NCBI GenBank assembly: GCA_963701025.1
Contig: OY969557.1
Location: 801,953-865,952, forward strand
Length of the DNA: 64,000 nt
Direction of reading: 5' to 3'
DNA from: an uncultured bacterium
Lineage (GTDB): Bacteria > Patescibacteriota > Minisyncoccia > Phycocordibacterales > PALSA-1337
Below the pieces are notes generated by a model, which worked only from the letters and a program-made list of their open reading frames with translations, searched no databases and had not been told where the DNA came from. Made by a program: the position numbers and the translations under genes. The stretch's first letter is position 1. The number at the start of each line of letters is the position of its first letter. Shown piece after piece: positions 61 through 22,586 of this stretch.

Positions 61-651
61 GTGATGAAAAAACACGTACAAAACATAATCATTGGTTCTC
101 TACTTGGTGATGGATGGCTTAATGCCCTATCCCCGACACAGAAATCTGTTTTCTGTATGAAGTGCCATGATAAGTCGATTGGGTATCTAGAATGGATGCG
201 AACCAAGATAGCCGAATTGGGGCCGTCTGAATTAAAGAGTATCTCGCGATATTCACAGCATTACTTCTATACTAGATCGAGTAAGGATTTAGGTGATCTG
301 CGAAAACTTTTCTATCCAAATGAGGGAAAGAAAAGAGTGCCGTCAAATATCAAGAATTTGCTTACTGACCCAGTGTCACTGGCAGTTTGGTATCAAGATG
401 ATGGGACTTTAGATTTTCGTTCAAAGTATCACAGAAATTCGTTGTTTGCGACGCATTGTTTTTCATTTGAAGACTGCTTTGTCTTAAAAGATACATTACA
501 GGAGAACTTTGGTATAAAAGTCTCTGTCTGTAAGTGTCAAATGCGTGGGAAAATGTATTATCGACTTTATGTATTTTCAGAAAGCATGGAACGCTTCGTG
601 AAAATAATCAGTCCTTTTATACATGAAAACCATGCATATAAAATAAGATAA
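61..651 (+). CDS. LAGLIDADG homing endonuclease encoded in 16S intron 1
   Basis: LLGDGWL and WYQDDGTL motifs are typical of a double-motif LAGLIDADG enzyme. The ORF lies entirely inside non-rRNA sequence that interrupts the 16S gene just upstream of the 515 region. Confidence 0.8.
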   Translation: MMKKHVQNIIIGSLLGDGWLNALSPTQKSVFCMKCHDKSIGYLEWMRTKIAELGPSELKSISRYSQHYFYTRSSKDLGDLRKLFYPNEGKKRVPSNIKNLLTDPVSLAVWYQDDGTLDFRSKYHRNSLFATHCFSFEDCFVLKDTLQENFGIKVSVCKCQMRGKMYYRLYVFSESMERFVKIISPFIHENHAYKIR

Positions 652-1299
652 TGTCAAGGCCAGCAGCAGCGGTAATACGAGTGCCTCGAGCGTTATCCGG
701 AATTATTGGGCGTAAAGGGTGCGTAGGCGGTTCCGTTAGTCTCGCGTTAAATTTCCCGGCTCAACCGGGAACCTGCGCGGGAAACGGCGGAACTAAGAGG
801 TTGGAAGGGGTTTGCGGAACTCATGGTGTAGCGGTGAAATGCGTTGATATCATGGGGAACACCAAAAGCGAAGGCAGCAAACTGGTCCAAATCTGACGCT
901 GAAGCACGAAAGCGTGGGTCGCGAATGGGATTAGATACCCCAGTAGTCCACGCCCTAAACGATGATCTCTCGCTTTGAGGAGTATCGACCCTCCTCGAGG
1001 CTTAGCTAACGCGTTAAGAGATCCGCCTGGGTAGTACGATCGCAAGATTGAAACTCAAAGAAATAGACGGGGACTTGCACAAGCGGTGGAACATGTGGTT
1101 CAATTCGACGATAAACGAAGAACCTTACCAAGGCTAGACATCCAGACGAAGATCCTGGGAAACCAGGGTCGCCGAAAGGCGGCTGGACAGGTGCTGCATG
1201 GCTGTCGTCAGTTCGTGGCTTGAGCTGTTCCCTTCAGTGGGGTAACGAACGCAACCCCTGTTGTCTGTTACAAGTATCAGACGAGACCGCCCAGCTTAG

Positions 1300-1392
1300 A
1301 GCGTGGAAGGTAGAGGGTAGAGGGTAGAGGGTAGAAATCGCATGTGCGATCGACTACTCTCCACTTTCTACTCTCCACTTTCTCCCTTCTAA
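1300..1392 (+). repeat. G-rich / CT-rich insertion in the 16S gene with (GGTAGAGG)x3 and a central ATCGCA-TG-TGCGAT hairpin
   Basis: Lies between the conserved cccagcttagag and cttctaagctggg helix arms. It shares the GGGTAGAG motif with 57112, 59236 and 59618. Confidence 0.7.
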
Positions 1393-1934
1393 GCTGGGAG
1401 GAAGGTGGGGATGACGCCAAGTCAGCATGGCCCTTTGACGCCTTGGGCTACACACGTGTTACAATCGGCGGGACAACGCGACGCAATGCCGTAAGGCGGA
1501 GCAAACCGTAATAAACCCGCCGCCAGTTCGGATTGAGGTCTGCAACTCGACCTCATGAAGCCGGAATCGCTAGTAATCGCAGGTCAGCTATACTGCGGTG
1601 AATACGTTCTCAAGTCTTGTACTCGGGTCGCCATGCGATCGAGTACGCTAGTTGGTGCAAATCCAACCCGGGCGATCAACAGCGTCCTGAAGCGAAATCA
1701 CAGTCTACTGTCCGTGAGGACTATAGATGAAGGGAGAAAGTAGCATTTCTTAGCTTGAATGCCAGTTATGGCACATATCATAGGTCATCCTGCGAGTACA
1801 TGGAGAAGCCTACTGTCGAAAAAAATGTGATATGTGTATCGTGGTATCGAGATGAGAAAAAAACAGTGTATTCGGTTACCGTGGGAGATCTTGCATAGGC
1901 TCTCGAATTATTTGAGAGTATAATATGAGTAATC

Positions 1935-2525: not shown

Positions 2526-2932
2526 GCAACCTTTGGAAAACGCGAGGGTGCGGGAAAACCGCTTGCCCCGTGTTGAAGAGAATTATAATGGCAACATTAT
2601 AACACATCAAATACCGCCCGTCAACCCAAGGGAGTCGGAGGTGCCCGAAATCTCGCTTTATGCGGGCCTACGGCAAATTCGATGACAGGGGGTAAGTCGT
2701 AACAAGGCACGGGTAGCGGAAGCTGCTCGTGGAATATTTCAAGTGAAACAACGCTTTTGATCCTTCGGGGTCACTAGCTGAAATGTCGATATGCTCTCCT
2801 AGAGAGCATGAGTTATCGTCGCACAACTCAAAATGGCGACGCTTAGTCTCCGAAGATAGGGGACACACATGGGCACATCATCGATGAGTGCTCATGGGCG
2901 AACGGAACAAAATAAAGAGCGCTATACGAAAG

Positions 2933-16678: not shown

Positions 16679-17807
16679 TTAATGCAGCGCCAGCCAGAAT
16701 CCGAAGACCACGAAGATGAAGTGCACCACCCAGAATCTCATGACGGTCTTCTCCTCGCTCCAGCCCTTGAGCTCGAAATGATGGTGAAGGGGCGCCATGG
16801 CGAAGACTTTGCGGCCGAAGAGATAGCGCGAACCGACCTGGATGACGACGGACAGGGCCTCGATATAGAACATGAAGCCGAGGAAAGGGAGCGAGCCAAG
16901 CTCGCCGATGGCCAAGGCGTTCACGGCCAGCAGGGCGCCCAAGCCGAGCGAGCCGACGTCGCCCATCATGAATCGCGCCGGCTTGATATTGAAATAAGTG
17001 TACGCGGTGATGGCTCCGACGGCGGTGGCGTTCAGGATGGCGATCTCGCCGAAGCCGTTGATCCACGAGAGCAGGGTGAGAGCGCTGAAGGTCGTGATGA
17101 GCATGCCCCCGGCCAAGCCATCCATGCCGTCGGCGATGTTGACTGCGTTGGCCGTGAACATGACCACCAGGATGACGATCGGCACGATCATCCAGCCGGC
17201 GTCGATCGACCAGCCGAAGGGAAAGTAGATGAAATGCCAGGCTGGCCCGAGCTTGTCATAGACCCACCAGGCGGTGACCGCTCCGGCGATGAATTGCAGT
17301 ATGAGCTTCTCATGGACGAAGACGCCGCGCCGAGTCCGCGAACCGAACCAGACGGACATGCGCTTGAAGGCGGTCCATGGCAGAGTGACGAAGTACCAGA
17401 ACGCGCATAGTCCATTCTTTGTGGATATGGACGAGCGTCCAAACATGAGAGAGCTTGCGGGAACGCCGCTCGGCGCCATATATGCTCATGAGGTCATCCA
17501 CTGCGCCTAGGAGGGCGGAAAAAAGCATGACGCCGACAGGCACGTAGGTGAAAGAGCGGGACCAGTTGAAGAGATAGGTGATGACGGCCACGGTCACGAT
17601 GACCAAAAGGCCGCCCATGACCGGTGTAGTGGCCTTGTAGGCGTGCGAGCCGAGCATGGTGAGCTCGGTCTTCGGGCCTTTTATGACATGGAAGCGGTAG
17701 AGCAGGCGTATAAGAAACGGCGCCCAGATGAACGCCACGACGGCCCCGACGAGCATGAAACCGATGATATAGGCCAAGTCGGCCGTGCCTTGGAGGATGC
17801 TGATCAT
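16679..17807 (-). CDS. mraY: Phospho-N-acetylmuramoyl-pentapeptide transferase MraY, interrupted by one frameshift near 17350-17390
   Basis: N-terminal part (KATTPVMGG, VDD...RK) is in ORF 17310..17807. C-terminal part (NAVNIADGMDGLAGG, MGDVGSLGLGA, PLHHHFELKGW) is in ORF 16679..17479. The frame change lies in a CTCTCTC run. Confidence 0.8.
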
Positions 17808-17859
17808 GGGAGAACGATAGCATGAAAATAGGGCTATGTGGAGGCTTTATGGGGTGGTA

Positions 17860-17888
17860 TTGACATAGGTGTTGATTGGGTGTATAAT
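17860..17888 (+). promoter_or_regulatory. Consensus sigma70 promoter TTGACA-17-TATAAT driving the DGR target gene
   Basis: Perfect -35 and -10 hexamers with a 17-nt spacer, ~110 nt upstream of the ATG at 18002. Confidence 0.6.
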
Positions 17889-18001
17889 GTCGACAGGTTA
17901 GAGATAGTTCATTTCCAACCCGCTGTGGCGAAGAGCCCAGCACCAGTAAATCCGAGCATGCCTCTATGAGGCTCGCTCAAAACAAGAAAGGACACGCTAT
18001 T

Positions 18002-18634
18002 ATGAATAGCACGTTCGCAATGAGTCAGGGTGCAGGTCAAAAATTGGAATTCGCTTTCCAACGCAACGATGGGAGTACAGCCGATTTGGATTGGCTCTCC
18101 ACTGGCGACAACCTCAAGTCAGTTATGCTACTCGCCCGGGGCGAAGCGGAATTGATCCTCAAGGTCAAGCCTGCTCCCGAGCCGGGGCCGGTTATCGACT
18201 CCATCATCCGTGTGGACCGCTCGATTCGTCCCACGTATCCCGATTGGGTTAAGACTGTGATGCATCCGGAGCTGGAGCCTCTTGGTCCGGCCGAGTATGA
18301 CATCGCGGAAGTCGAGCAATGGCTCCACGAAGGCCAGAAGGACGGGAAGTGGATCGAAGGCAACAATATCTACGCCCATCTCAAGGAGATCGACACTCTG
18401 AAGACCTGCCTCGGACTGCGTGACCTTGAAGAGATCCAAAAGAAAGGCATTGCCTTCTTCCGGAAACACTTTGGCGGCAAAGCAGTCTTTGGTTGGTCCG
18501 GTGTCGTGCGGCTCCGCCATGGCGACCTCTGCGTCCCGTACCTCTGCGGGTTCGGTGACAGAGTGGTCCTCTACTGGAGCTGGCTCGGCCTCGGCTGGGA
18601 CGGCGACTACCCGGCTCTCCGCCACGCAAGTTAG
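18002..18634 (+). CDS. DGR target (variable) protein with a C-terminal variable region; alternative start 17966
   Basis: The last ~42 codons (18505-18629) form the variable region matching the template repeat. AAAGGA RBS before 18002. Confidence 0.7.
   Translation: MNSTFAMSQGAGQKLEFAFQRNDGSTADLDWLSTGDNLKSVMLLARGEAELILKVKPAPEPGPVIDSIIRVDRSIRPTYPDWVKTVMHPELEPLGPAEYDIAEVEQWLHEGQKDGKWIEGNNIYAHLKEIDTLKTCLGLRDLEEIQKKGIAFFRKHFGGKAVFGWSGVVRLRHGDLCVPYLCGFGDRVVLYWSWLGLGWDGDYPALRHAS
18505..18629 (+). repeat. DGR variable region (VR)
   Basis: 125 nt aligned to 19013-19137 with 21 mismatches, every one at a position where the other copy has A. Confidence 0.85.
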
Positions 18635-18732
18635 CGCTTAGGCCTTGGTCACTTTGCACTCTGTGCGCTTTGACCTTTGCCCTAAAAATTTGGTGGTCTA
18701 ACCACCCGGCATGGAATGAGCCGCTGACATTC

Positions 18733-18763
18733 AAAACCCACATGACGAAATCATGTGGGTTTT
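18733..18763 (+). terminator. Perfect hairpin AAAACCCACATGA-cgaaa-TCATGTGGGTTTT downstream of the VR; terminator and/or DGR-associated stem-loop
   Basis: 13-bp perfect stem with U-run, ~100 nt after the target-gene stop. Confidence 0.55.
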
Positions 18764-19012
18764 CGGCATATGGTAAACTATGTGCGGTAGTAGGCGAATC
18801 ATGCGGGCGGTCAAGGCTTCCCGCGGCCGAATCCAGTATCCATGAGCTGAGAACGAGAGCGGTTACGGCTTCTCTCGGAGGGCTTATGCAGACACTTCAA
18901 AAAATGAAGCTACTTGGTGCAGAATGTTATGGCATTATGATGCCGAATACGATTCAATCTCGAGATCGCGTAAGCTTCAAGGGATGGTGACATGGAAGAC
19001 ATTTTGCATATA

Positions 19013-19137
19013 CGTGCGGAACCGCCATGGCAACCTCAACGTCCCGTACCTCTACGAGAACGGTGACAAAGTGGTCCTCAACTGGAACTGGCTCGACAAC
19101 GACTGGAACAGCAACAACCCGGCTCTCCGCCACGCAA
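19013..19137 (+). repeat. DGR template repeat (TR)
   Basis: Adenine-rich and full of AAC codons in the target frame. Differs from the VR only at A positions. The overlapping 86-aa ORF is a translation artefact. Confidence 0.85.
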
Positions 19138-19143
19138 TTCGTA

Positions 19144-19497
19144 TCATTTCTCTCCTGTTTTTGCGGGAGAGTTTTGCTTTGTAAGCTGCCCGCTCCAGCC
19201 GCCGAGATTGGTGCCGATCTCCTCGAGCTTCACCGATAATGCGATATATTTCTTGTCGTCGAGTGACTTGGATTCCCAAAGTATCATAAGTAACACTTTA
19301 AGTGTGTCGAGCTTTCGTATGGCTAGGCGGACATAGGGCGATTTCTCTTCTCTGGAGAGGAATGTGGCCGCGGCGATAGCTTCTATGATTTCCACGAATA
19401 GGCAATCTATCCGCAGTCCTATAGAATATCTGTGTTCCTTCGGCAATTCCATATAATACCCATGCCACATCAGATACGCATCTTTGATCTTGCGCAT
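19144..19497 (-). CDS. avd: DGR accessory variability determinant Avd (four-helix-bundle family)
   Basis: The C-terminus LEEIGTNLGGWSGQL resembles BPP-1 Avd EVGRILGSWIARV. ~117 aa. The ORF-track TTG start at 19506 is replaced by the ATG at 19497. Confidence 0.65.
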   Translation of the reverse strand: MRKIKDAYLMWHGYYMELPKEHRYSIGLRIDCLFVEIIEAIAAATFLSREEKSPYVRLAIRKLDTLKVLLMILWESKSLDDKKYIALSVKLEEIGTNLGGWSGQLTKQNSPAKTGEK

Positions 19498-19514
19498 GAC
19501 CGGCAAAATTCCGT

Positions 19515-19525
19515 GGGGGGGGGGG
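19515..19525. repeat. G11 homopolymer between the divergent avd and RT starts
   Basis: ccgtGGGGGGGGGGGcttt seen directly. Confidence 0.9.
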
Positions 19526-19535
19526 CTTTCATAGC

Positions 19536-20530
19536 TTGCGACGGATCCGGTTTGCTCATATGTACGATGATATCATCTCCCTTGAAAATCTGCTCGAAGC
19601 ATGGAGAGAATTCGTAAGAGGGAAACGAAAAAGAAAAGACGTCCAAAATTTCGAGCGGGATCTGATGGCGAATATCATTTCGCTCCATCGAGACTTGGCA
19701 GCAATGACTTATGAGCATTTGGAATATGAATTCTTCAGGATTTATGATCCGAAGCTGCGAGACATCCATAAAGCCAGCGTCAGAGATCGTGTGCTTCACC
19801 GGGCCTTGCATAGAAAATTGTATCCATTCTTTGAGCGCACATTCATAGCAGATTCTTTTTCATGCCGGCTCGATAAAGGGACTCACAAAGCCTTAGATCA
19901 ATTCCGATCGTTCTCGTATAAAACGTCTTGCAACCGCACCAAGACGGCATGGATTTTGAAATGCGACATTAGGAAATTCTTTGCTTCAATAGATCAGACC
20001 GTTCTCATGGAGATCTTATCGATCTATATCCAAGACGAGAATGTCCTGGCTCTGGTGTCGAAGGTCGTCTCGAGCTTTTCTTCGACAGCAAAAGGGATTG
20101 GCTTGCCATTGGGCAATCTCACCTCTCAACTTCTCGTGAATATATATATGAATGAGTTCGATCAGTTCATGAAGCATAAGCTTAGGCGAAATATTATATC
20201 CGCTATGCCGATGATTTTGTCATCCTTTCAATAGATAGAGATTGGCTCTGCAACCTTATTCCAAAGATCAGCGATTTTCTCGAGACCAGGCTTAAGCTCA
20301 AGCTTCATCCGAACAAAATCAGCATTGAAACGTTCGCTTCAGGCGTTGATTTCCTCGGCTGGGTGCATTTTCCCGATCACAGGGTGCTCCGGACCAAGAC
20401 TAAACAGAGGATGTTCAGGAATATAAAAATAAAACAGGCCAAGTCTGAAACAATCCAGTCCTATCTCGGCCTACTGAGTCACGGAAACACCAAAAAGCTG
20501 CAGAATATCATAACCACTTCAATCTCCTGA
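19536..20530 (+). CDS. DGR reverse transcriptase, interrupted by a single -1 frameshift at about 20184-20189
   Basis: N-terminal LENLLEAWREFVRGKRKRKDVQNFERDL and motif IGLPLGNLTSQLLVNIYMNEFD are in frame 0 (19536-20189). AKYYIRYADDFVIL (YxDD) and KLKLHPNKISI continue in frame 2 (20186-20530). Restoring one G in aggcg joins them. Confidence 0.8.
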
Positions 20531-21284
20531 TTTCCGTTTTTGAATTTTGAGCCCGTGCAAAAATCCTATTATCAGCAGAAATCTTTCCATTTTCATTCCA
20601 CATTTGATCCAGAAGGCCGCCATTCGGCTTGACGACCTCGATCACCCCTTGCTTCACTCCGGTGCCGTATACGCCGTCTTCGGGATAGGCCATGACGTGG
20701 GAATAGTGGATCTTGATCGGGACGAAATTCTGATATTCGACTTGGTGGATAACGAGAATATGGTCCCGATCGTCGCTGTCTGGGCCGCCGATCATGATGA
20801 TCATGTCTCCCGGCGCCGTATCTTTGAGCGCCACGAGGACACTATTTTTTTCATGAGCCAAGGTAGCCACGTCGCAATTCTCTATCGGCCGCAGGGAACA
20901 GCGGATCTTGCCGACGATACCATGACAATTGACGAACGAGATGTGCCTGTCGAGAGGCCCCTTCTTTCTCTCCTCGCTTTCCGCGTTCAATGTGTAATAG
21001 GCAAAAGCGGAGCAATCGATGCCGATATCATCGTCCACGAGGAGCTTCTTCAGGGATTCGTTTGCCAGGGAATCCACGGCGATGTGTTTCTTTGCCGTTA
21101 TAGTTCGGACTTCTTCAAAAATGTCCGCCGGACTACCCTTACCGATGTCGGCTCGCAAGGCGGCACGGGCTTTGACCTTCTTGTTATTGAAATACGGGAT
21201 CGAACAAACCGCCCCACCCACCTTGAAATGGAAGTATTGGTCGATGACCGACAGGGCACGAGGTGTTATGGTTTTAGTGTTCAT
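20508..21284 (-). CDS. Hypothetical protein with a possible papain/NlpC-like Cys motif
   Basis: ORF; CSAFAYY motif only. Confidence 0.3.
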   Translation of the reverse strand: MNTKTITPRALSVIDQYFHFKVGGAVCSIPYFNNKKVKARAALRADIGKGSPADIFEEVRTITAKKHIAVDSLANESLKKLLVDDDIGIDCSAFAYYTLNAESEERKKGPLDRHISFVNCHGIVGKIRCSLRPIENCDVATLAHEKNSVLVALKDTAPGDMIIMIGGPDSDDRDHILVIHQVEYQNFVPIKIHYSHVMAYPEDGVYGTGVKQGVIEVVKPNGGLLDQMWNENGKISADNRIFARAQNSKTEIRRLKWL

Positions 21285-21290
21285 TAGAAA

Positions 21291-22586
21291 TTAGTCCGCC
21301 AGCTGGCGGAAATTAGAAATTATCTTTAGTATCTCCTTGCCTCTCGCATTGAACCTGCCATGCGTCTCCATGATGCCGCGCATGCTCTGGATGCGCAAGA
21401 GATCGGCGCCGAGTTCGGTGTTCGGATAAGGGATCGCCGTATATCCGGCGAGCTCGAAAGAACCCACGGCATCATCGGGCAGGCTTCGAATCTTCTCCGT
21501 CACGCGCTGAACGATCTGGGCTCCGTCGTTGATGGGAATGAGGGGGAGGCTGTCGTTTGATGCTGTTGCGTCGCGCGCCGAGGCACCCGTGGCGGCTTCG
21601 CCGAGCAGGGCAACGATATGCGCCTCAAAGACGATCGATCCGATGGCTCCCTGCCGGCGATTCTCTTCCTGGAGGAACGATTCAAATGAGGCGGAAGCGG
21701 GCTGACGGGCGTTTATCTCGATCAGGAATATCGCGTCACGGTCGTCGTCCCGCATGACGTCTATTCCGAAGAGCCCGCGCCAGCCGTCGGCGCGCATCTT
21801 CTCCCCGATGGCGCGCGCCATGTCCTCGATCCGGATGATCTCCGTTTCGCTCAAGAGGGAATGAGTCATGCTCCAGTCATTGCCGACCGTGGCGAACGGT
21901 TGGTCGGTGAAAGGCGGCAGGCCAGTCAACTGATAGCTCGGATTGCCGATGAGGATGTTGCCGGTCCCGATCCCGTCGGGCGCCACGACGATGTTGACGG
22001 TGAATGACGGTCCTCGGACGAAAGAGCTCGCTCTCGCCGGGCGGTCGGGGAATTTTCTTTGCAATGCGCGCAGCTCATTGGCCGAATTGACCAGGATGGT
22101 GCCGTCGCCGGTGTGGCCATGCGCCCATTGGACGACGAGAGGCTCCTTGTTCCAGACAAGCTCCTTTGCGGGGGCGACAGTATGCGCCGGGAGATATTGT
22201 TCAGCCAGCGGGCCGAGCCACTCTACTTGAGTTATCTTATTCTCGACTTTTTCTGCGAGGGCGCTCGAAGGATTGAGCAATTTCCAGCCATTCTCCATGG
22301 TTATTGCTTCGATCAGCGGATTGTTCTTGAAGACGAGCAGGGCGGCGTCCGGGCCCGACATCAATTCCTTGACGACGGTGCTTTTGAGTAGTTGGAGCGT
22401 GTCGAGGGTGTTTCCTTCCGTGGCACCCTCTTCTTCAACGAGATGGACGAAGTCAGGATATCGCCCTTTTATGATTTCGGCATACGGCGTCCTGTTCGAC
22501 ACGATGACGTATTCGGCGCATGGCGCCATGCCGAGCGCGCGCTCGATATCGCGGACGACATAGACAATCTTTCTCTTTTGAGACAT
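21291..22586 (-). CDS. ATP-grasp domain protein
   Basis: LFGIDVMRDDDRDAIFLIEINARQ matches the ATP-grasp C-terminal signature. Confidence 0.55.
   Translation of the reverse strand: MSQKRKIVYVVRDIERALGMAPCAEYVIVSNRTPYAEIIKGRYPDFVHLVEEEGATEGNTLDTLQLLKSTVVKELMSGPDAALLVFKNNPLIEAITMENGWKLLNPSSALAEKVENKITQVEWLGPLAEQYLPAHTVAPAKELVWNKEPLVVQWAHGHTGDGTILVNSANELRALQRKFPDRPARASSFVRGPSFTVNIVVAPDGIGTGNILIGNPSYQLTGLPPFTDQPFATVGNDWSMTHSLLSETEIIRIEDMARAIGEKMRADGWRGLFGIDVMRDDDRDAIFLIEINARQPASASFESFLQEENRRQGAIGSIVFEAHIVALLGEAATGASARDATASNDSLPLIPINDGAQIVQRVTEKIRSLPDDAVGSFELAGYTAIPYPNTELGADLLRIQSMRGIMETHGRFNARGKEILKIISNFRQLAD

Follow-up and report, generated by a model that had tools for sequence, protein, structure and literature searches.

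The window analysed here is a 64,000-nt stretch of an uncultured bacterium of the Patescibacteria, or candidate phyla radiation (CPR) (contig OY969557.1 of assembly GCA_963701025.1, positions 801,953 to 865,952). It carries a diversity-generating retroelement (DGR), in which a target gene ending in a variable repeat (VR) is followed by a template repeat (TR), an avd gene and a reverse transcriptase (RT) gene. The evidence points, with a probability of roughly 0.8, to a chromosomal CPR element of the B3 layout whose TR belongs to a separate RNA of ~395 nt, and whose RT gene has suffered a lesion that leaves the cassette either switched off or dependent on a second RT. CPR bacteria are enriched in DGRs; finding one in a CPR genome is expected biology, and the order of its genes is the published norm.

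An adenine-only repeat pair

The VR (18505-18629) and the TR (19013-19137) align without gaps over 125 nt and differ at 20 positions. At all of them (20/20) the TR carries an adenine, replaced in the VR by G (11 positions), T (7) or C (2), and every mismatch falls on the first or second position of a codon. Thus, 20 of the 34 adenines of the TR have been used, while none of the 91 other TR positions differs from the VR in the window (0/91); the hypergeometric probability that all mismatches land on A is ~2e-14. The homology ends abruptly on either side. A first-pass annotation, made from the letters alone, had called a DGR comprising TR, C-terminal VR, Avd and RT, had confined the mismatches to TR adenines and had placed the VR in the last ~42 codons of the 18002-18634 gene. 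This core call was right, the open reading frame bears out the position of the VR, and the same A-only pattern is found in 28 related loci. The annotated number of 21 mismatches was one too many, since the supposed 21st is the first base beyond the repeat.

When these 28 distinct loci were pooled, the VR differed from the TR at 463 of 922 adenine cells versus 41 of 2578 non-adenine cells. The annotated restriction to adenines, strict in the window, becomes in this larger sample a strong bias in which non-adenine substitutions are rare, not zero. The 3′ part of the repeats behaves differently from the rest: VR and TR are identical over their last 21 nt (CCCGGCTCTCCGCCACGCAA), and the three A-bearing positions of this block are changed in 0/8, 1/25 and 2/27 loci. 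The adenines of the final 8 nt (ACGCAA) are essentially unchanged across the 28 loci, which marks a 3′ boundary resembling the initiation of mutagenic homing (IMH) site, and the flanks of VR and TR diverge right after GCAA. The first-pass annotation had also proposed a search for additional VRs matching this TR. Both strands of the 64-kb window were scanned with the 91 non-adenine TR positions and contained no second VR; the next-best site matched at 46 of the 91 positions, a background level.

An ordinary duplication or a gene-conversion remnant with an A bias by coincidence would account for the existence of a direct repeat and for nothing more. It would leave the 20/20 mismatches on A to the chance given above, although Avd and a DGR-type RT adjoin the repeats and the identical pattern recurs in 28 independent loci. 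We regard this explanation as already refuted, its residual probability being negligible.

A proposed discrete RNA carrying the template repeat

Taken together, the conservation of a promoter box, a leader, the TR and a hairpin followed by a U-tract indicates that the TR is part of a discrete RNA gene of ~395 nt, which would extend from 18786 to ~19180. Upstream, an extended -10 box lies shortly before an invariant GG. A TAnnnT box ends 4-7 nt before this GG in 28 of 28 target-family loci (6-7 nt in 26 of them), and 5-7 nt before it in 90 of the 91 loci that carry the 5′ motif of the leader, among the matches listed. In these two sets, the second again among the matches listed, a TG precedes the box in 23/28 and 72/91 loci, respectively.

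The leader contains the invariant 5′ end GGUAGUAGG and a second invariant segment, CCGAAUCCAGUAUCCAU (18827-18843). Its structure was analysed on an alignment of 29 loci, for which RNAalifold predicted 72 pairs, of which 38 show compensatory double changes. In a curated set of 65 pairs, 96.2% of the cells were paired, versus 37-45% when the partners were slid. Changes on both sides were counted in 36 pairs and 238 cells; the slid controls gave 11-23 pairs and 24-58 cells, and none of 500 shuffles reached any of the covariation measures of the curated pairs. One of the predicted helices, 12 bp long, stops 5-6 nt short of the TR.

On the other side of the TR, a linker (consensus CUCUUCAUUUC, UUCGUAUCAUUU in the window) leads to a 9-bp stem that covaries across loci (fold z = -4.2) and is followed by a conserved UUUUGYUUU, a terminator-like arrangement. 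The stop codon and the last 11 codons of avd, read from the opposite strand, overlap this RNA terminator. At conserved avd codons, the third-position entropy is high up to codon 108 and collapses only in codons 110-120, where individual codons are frozen (for example, Q111 is CAA in 65/66 and N112 is AAC in 77/78). Since the synonymous sites of avd are frozen only over the hairpin and the U-tract, no conserved RNA is expected beyond the U-tract, and the same entropy profile ruled out an RNA hidden in the antisense of avd that would resemble the downstream spacer (Sp) of phage BPP-1. Because conservation ends at the terminator 3′ of the TR, the accessory RNA would lie 5′ of the TR, unlike in BPP-1.

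A long-range contact may connect the two sides of the TR. The linker segment UCAUUU (19144-19149) is complementary to AAAUGA in the leader (18902-18907), and the candidate helix between the leader AAAUGAAG (18902-18909) and the linker CUUCAUUU comprises 6 bp in the window. Of the cells of this helix, 92.9% pair in the alignment of 29 loci, and three pairs show double changes; four kinds of compensatory change are seen in a wider set. Two other pairings were discarded. For the primer:template duplex that RNAalifold placed between leader nt 8-11 and the 3′ end of the TR, only one-sided changes were observed. The local leader hairpin CUUCA/UGAAG showed no covariation and more broken cells, the CUUCAUUU partner giving the better fit.

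To determine how widely this RNA occurs, two sets of loci are informative. The target-family set contains 70 genomic loci from metagenome-assembled genomes of Patescibacteria (Taylorbacteria, Nomurabacteria, Paceibacterota, Parcubacteria and others), and every one of the ~30 loci with avd and RT nearby displays the order target(+), TR(+), avd(-), RT(+). The second set was recovered with the leader 17-mer CCGAATCCAGTATCCAT, which occurs once in the window and is present in at least 120 metagenome stretches and 3 IMG/VR contigs, giving a pool of 123 loci. Neither RT nor avd was found beside the 17-mer in the 3 IMG/VR contigs. Among the 79 listed 17-mer loci with enough downstream sequence, an RT(+) is encoded in 56, with an opposite-strand avd in between in 55. 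The GGUAGUAGG 5′ end is present in 59 of the 60 listed motif loci that have avd and RT. A VR was found in 34 of 50 listed motif loci, always upstream and on the same strand; its distance to the TR is 440-560 nt in 32 of these 34 loci. The N-terminal domain of the window's target occurs in only 8 of 84 listed motif loci; therefore, the leader follows the type of cassette and not this particular target.

In terms of base composition, the avd-RT segment (19200-20600) has a GC content of 43-48%, compared with a window mean of 52% and up to ~58-62% in flanking genes, and the cassettes of relatives lie in unrelated genomic neighbourhoods. Low GC and varied neighbourhoods fit a mobile or horizontally exchanged module.

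Searches for a known counterpart gave no family match in Rfam 15 over 18600-19600, even at E <= 10, and the Rfam scan of the whole window returned nothing at the gathering threshold in the region of the DGR RNA. In the DGR literature searched, no mention was found of the covarying leader with a dedicated promoter, of a terminator directly following the TR or of the conserved G tract (described below); Paul et al. 2017 (Nat Microbiol), the principal paper on CPR DGRs, may describe them. As far as checked, the TR-RNA gene with its structured 5′ domain and the conserved G tract are both lineage-wide and undescribed.

These features can be combined into a tentative model, to which we give slightly less than even odds. 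In this model, the CPR DGR RNA would correspond to an autonomous small-RNA gene (~395 nt), permuted with respect to that of BPP-1: the structure recruiting RT and Avd and allowing priming would reside in the 227-nt 5′ domain, the TR would be looped by the AAAUGAAG:CUUCAUUU and 12-bp helices, and the RNA would end at the 9-bp terminator over the avd stop codon.

In the cassette as a whole, the target gene would be expressed from its own strong promoter up to its own terminator, and the extended -10 promoter located right after this terminator would start the ~395-nt RNA. The polymerase would then transcribe, in order, the 227-nt leader, the 125-nt TR, the short linker and the 9-bp stem-loop with its U-tract, where transcription most likely ends. 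The avd gene would be read from the other strand, and RT divergently from avd across the spacer containing the G tract (G11 in the window). Following the BPP-1 paradigm, RT and Avd would bind the DGR RNA, the TR would be copied to cDNA with misincorporation opposite adenines, and the cDNA would replace the VR up to its GC-rich 3′ end. The expected outcome is the rewriting seen at 20 of the 34 A positions, located in the putatively lectin-like C-terminal tail of the target.

Avd, the interrupted reverse transcriptase and the state of the cassette

The avd product matches NCBIfam NF033474 DivGenRetAVD over positions 1-102 of 104 (E = 9.4e-15), its sole match there and one below the curated cut-off, and Pfam bAvd (E = 1.3e-8). 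Its position and strand are the same in all relatives. In the survey of Wu et al. 2018 (PMC5758913), the arrangement TR-(avd)-RT corresponds to architecture B3, which accounts for 90% of their CPR DGR set, and the succession of TR (+), avd (-) and RT (+) in the window (Table 1) is the B3 order. The divergent avd, judged unusual by the first-pass annotation, is therefore the norm for this lineage, and all related loci with avd and RT show TR(+)-avd(-)-RT(+).

Regarding the RT, both halves match Pfam RVT_1 and the LGNLTSQ and YADD motifs are present, but the open reading frame is split before YADD. The break lies at ~20186, where one frame ends its conserved part with ...MKHKLR and the -1 frame continues with AKYYIRYADDF...; the product of the first frame is devoid of the catalytic box. 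Joining the two frames at CTT-A(A/G)G-GCG implies a 1-nt deletion, the window reading CTT AGG CGA AAT, one base short. In contrast, 22 of 22 related loci with a YIRYADD motif are in frame at this point (...AAG GCG AAA TAC TAT... or similar), so that the element cannot be termed complete, as it had been at first. RT homologues number thousands in Patescibacteria and are 76-79% identical over the N-terminal part. Among 49 metagenome relatives, the RT is unbroken in 43 and split or degenerate in 6, so that decay of the RT, or breaks in its assembly, is not uncommon in the lineage.

Another assembly contains the same locus. The Logan contig L073 (run ERR11718638) is 100% identical to window positions 17772-21318, including the VR, the G tract and the frameshift, and this agreement led us to reject an assembly error as the origin of the RT frameshift. 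Programmed frameshifting was rejected as well: no slippery heptamer is present, and CUU-AGG-C resembles the Ty1 +1 site whereas a -1 shift is needed. The VR of L073, the only other copy, is identical to that of the window, and the contig is continuous across the VR, evidence against strong heterogeneity of the VR in the underlying reads. In our reading, the RT lesion is real and recent and the cassette is currently off or dependent on a second RT; most likely, it was switched off very recently. Very recent activity had initially been deduced from the lack of non-adenine mismatches; this lack is compatible with it, but the RT is broken and L073 is unbroken through the VR.

L073 and the window part company in the neighbouring essential gene mraY (window 16679-17807), which an extra G at 17403 splits into two frames in the window; L073 is devoid of this G and encodes an intact product. 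In the source assembly, the extra G probably reflects an indel error or a minority allele. Over window positions 16771-17771, also within mraY, the two differ by 26 substitutions (16 synonymous, 9 conservative), and L073 is therefore not simply the same consensus as the window. The sharp switch at 17772 suggests strain recombination, a sweep of the DGR segment or a chimeric consensus in one of the assemblies.

A fully active DGR, in which the RT frameshift would be an artefact, a minority allele or a site bypassed by ribosomal -1 frameshifting, is an explanation that we consider unlikely. The two RT halves are well conserved (79% and 68% identity to the homologue P0121) and have no internal stops, a -1 re-read at 20186 would yield a product exactly colinear with the homologues, and the 0/91 non-adenine differences between TR and VR are in keeping with activity. 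Moreover, the mraY indel shows that the source assembly is not free of indels. However, L073 corrects the mraY indel and still carries the RT frameshift, and its unbroken passage through the VR argues against strong heterogeneity there. The site itself, CTTAGGCG, is not a long homopolymer and does not match the canonical slippery heptamer X-XXY-YYZ, and none of the 22 motif-bearing related loci departs from the frame.

Servicing in trans, with a dead RT at the locus and a VR still being diversified by a second DGR RT-Avd pair, is improbable in our estimation. Its candidate agent, P0202, is an intact RT of 356 aa, 69% identical and encoded outside the window, which appears to be a second DGR RT of the same genome. 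Its N-terminal extension RGGGGD seems to reflect the same G-tract layout, and the lineage-wide conservation of the leader, including the invariant 9- and 17-mers, makes cross-recognition conceivable. On the other hand, 69% identity is far for a tightly fitted ribonucleoprotein, and the RNA-protein contacts of BPP-1 are extensive and specific (bioRxiv 10.1101/2023.10.23.563531).

Several points weigh against the overall interpretation of a discrete template RNA beside a recently inactivated RT. The ends of the RNA are placed solely by the conservation of its promoter and terminator. The leader:linker helix is a candidate of moderate strength drawn from sequence comparison, with a central mismatch in 14 loci, and the discarded 4-bp duplex involving leader nt 8-11 is not preserved in loci whose leader or VR belongs to a different variant. 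The two assemblies sharing the frameshift may stem from one sample, and the placement of P0202 in the same genome is uncertain, a doubt that also counts against servicing in trans.

Target gene, G tract and relation to known elements

The coordinates of the cassette are collected in Table 1.

Table 1. Features of the DGR cassette in window coordinates
Feature	Position	Strand	Description
Target-gene promoter, sigma-70 type	17860-17888	+	TTGACA-17-TATAAT, 12/12 match
DGR target gene	18002-18634 (database gene call begins 17966)	+	210 aa
VR	18505-18629	+	Final 42 codons of the target gene
IMH-like 3′ end of VR	18609-18629	+	21 nt, GC-rich, never mutated
Target-gene intrinsic terminator	18733-18763	+	Perfect 13-bp stem, 5-nt loop
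Predicted extended -10 box of DGR RNA	18771-18779	+	TGgTAAACT, 6 nt before the invariant GG at 18786
Structured 5′ leader of DGR RNA	18786-19012	+	227 nt, at least 6 helices with compensatory changes
TR	19013-19137	+	34 adenines, many as AAC codons
Predicted 3′ end of DGR RNA	19138-19181	+	Linker, 9-bp stem with tetraloop (19150-19171), U-tract (19172-19181)
avd	19144-19506	-	Opposite strand to TR and RT
G11 homopolymer	19515-19525		Within the 54-bp spacer between the divergent avd and RT genes, 10 nt 5′ of the start codon of RT
RT N-terminal part	19536-20186	+	TTG start (ATG at 19560), LGNLTSQ motif, stop in frame at 20234
RT C-terminal part	20186-20530	+	-1 frame, AKYYIRYADDF..., catalytic YADD box

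The promoter of the target gene, described from the outset as a perfect consensus and confirmed as such, lies ~113 nt 5′ of the start codon, and most relatives have a promoter matching at 11-12 of 12 positions ~100-160 nt 5′ of their target gene. The resulting 5′ untranslated region (UTR) is long (17889-18001 in the window, ~100-160 nt in relatives, behind near-consensus promoters). Many relatives share a short GTAGTTCTTTG-like motif right after the -10 box, and this region may be a regulatory leader.

The target protein has no domain match in Pfam or NCBIfam and is devoid of transmembrane segments. Its AlphaFold 2 model reaches a predicted local distance difference test score (pLDDT) of 91.7, and the predicted fold weakly resembles C-type-lectin folds, from which it is divergent. 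All 340 homologues come from Patescibacteria-type sources. The protein is identical to one database protein, and its 90% protein cluster has a single member. In the protein alignment of the family, hypervariability is found exactly at the AAC codons of the TR. Many target homologues have neither a TR nor avd nor RT within 4 kb (loci L011-L013, L015, L016, L020, L028, L032, L033 and others); they may be remote targets of a DGR located elsewhere, or non-diversified paralogues.

Downstream of the VR, the annotated perfect 13-bp hairpin does exist. It begins 104 nt after the VR, is the sole strong hairpin there and is composed of a 9-bp GC-containing core flanked by A4/T4 (fold -18 kcal/mol, z = -4.1). 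At the same relative position, ~100 nt past the VR, all the relatives compared have a hairpin of their own sequence and then a T-run, directly followed by the promoter of the TR RNA. Because these hairpins are unrelated in sequence, end in T-runs and precede a promoter, we assign 18733-18763 as the intrinsic terminator of the target gene. The role of homing-enhancing cruciform of the BPP type, which had been proposed for it, was rejected on the same grounds, and the locus has no GC-rich cruciform directly 3′ of the VR and its IMH-like end.

The 3′ UTR of the target (18630-18735) itself folds strongly (-38.7 kcal/mol, z = -4.0). A 6-bp hairpin within it, GGTGGTctaACCACC (18692-18706), is kept only in the closest relatives (L003-L005, L008-L010 and L018), while other loci show at this position pyrimidine-rich CTTTG/CTTAG-like repeats that Tandem Repeats Finder (TRF) did not pick up; TRF reported no tandem repeats after the VR.

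A homopolymer of 11 G lies in the short spacer between avd and RT. Nearly all target-family relatives have at this spot G8-G14, (GT)n or (TGGC)n, including (TGGC)7, and an assembly gap falls inside the tract in locus L034. A G-run, mostly 7-12 long, is present in 58 of the 60 listed motif loci with avd and RT, usually 10-13 nt 5′ of the RT start codon. In 62 of 75 loci a start codon for RT is available 3′ of the tract, which leaves a frame switch of RT unsupported. A frame switch of avd is likewise unsupported, since an in-frame start upstream of the tract exists in only 10 of 26 loci.

A role as Shine-Dalgarno site is favoured by the spacing of 10-13 nt from the start codon and by locus L111, one of the two loci devoid of a G-run, which carries GGAGG at this place. 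It is made doubtful by the window's own 16S rRNA, whose 3′ end appears to read GGAATATTTCAAG, without CCUCC. The tract may serve as a contingency tract or as an atypical element for ribosome binding or regulation, and such a conserved and putatively hypermutable G7-14 tract could switch the DGR on and off. Poly-G tracts in Campylobacter and the (TA)n of the hifA-hifB divergent promoter in Haemophilus are examples of contingency loci. As in these loci, the short control region between two divergent genes holds, always at the same place, a homopolymer of 7-14 G whose length varies between loci and which is replaced by (GT)n or (TGGC)n in some. Unlike contingency tracts inside open reading frames, it precedes the RT start codon in the 62 of 75 loci mentioned above. 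Our searches found no literature linking DGRs with such tracts.

The 16S rRNA gene of the window (482-1649 and 2578-2731) is split by a ~930-nt insertion (1650-2577) located near position ~1390 of the E. coli gene, which contains matches to group II intron domains (1708-1873 and 1918-2030) and an open reading frame of 196 aa (1935-2525); the 3′ exon resumes at ~2578. CPR 16S genes are known to harbour insertions. At its apparent 3′ end (window 2700-2740, an approximate boundary), the gene reads ...GTAGCGGAAGCTGCTCGTGGAATATTTCAAG and not ...GGATCACCTCCTT, and the canonical anti-Shine-Dalgarno CCUCC seems absent.

Compared with the CPR DGRs of the B3 type and of clade 2, the cassette has the same TR, reverse-strand avd and RT, preceded by a target with a C-terminal VR, and is likewise chromosomal. 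According to Roux et al. 2021 (PMC8144416), DGR clade 2 is restricted to Patescibacteria and cell-encoded, with targets lacking recognisable domains; here too, the target has neither a known domain nor a transmembrane segment. The gene order is identical, and the window differs by its frameshifted RT.

The BPP-1 element (mtd-avd-TR-Sp-brt) shares with the window an A-specific transfer from an AAC-rich TR to a VR, a GC-rich 3′ block with unmutated adenines and a C-terminal VR in a lectin-like fold, weakly suggested here by the structural model. The BPP-1 RNA requires only 20 nt on the 5′ side of its TR, together with a 140-nt Sp on the 3′ side; Sp contains the bRT-binding stem as well as the Avd-binding stem-loop, the priming A56, the cPRT stop strand and the thumb ring (bioRxiv 10.1101/2023.10.23.563531). 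In the same work, Handa et al. predicted an Avd-binding stem-loop in 207 of 278 DGRs, and their screen of other DGRs, including those of CPR, was confined to the 40 nt preceding and the 100 nt following the TR. The ~9-bp stem-loop just 3′ of the TR in the window fits this Avd-binding class. Unlike in BPP-1, avd lies here on the other strand, conservation 3′ of the TR stops ~45 nt past it, at the terminator, while a 227-nt structured domain lies 5′, and instead of a cruciform directly after the VR there is a terminator hairpin 104 nt downstream. Weinberg et al. 2017 (PMC5737381) have also described structured non-coding RNAs beside bacterial RTs, motifs RT-1 to RT-19, of which at least one is part of a DGR, RT-10 being located between TR and brt in BPP-1; none of these motifs matches here.

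The lineage thus appears to package its template in a discrete and strongly covarying RNA, found at 90 loci or more, with the accessory structure on the opposite side of the TR from that of BPP-1. As BPP-1 is the only DGR understood mechanistically, the leader gives testable predictions on cDNA priming and termination beyond the phage model. It also suggests that surveys restricted to the 3′ side of the TR overlook the relevant RNA of such elements. Finally, a single-base RT lesion next to a pristine TR/VR pair provides a natural case for studying the rate of DGR loss or servicing in trans.

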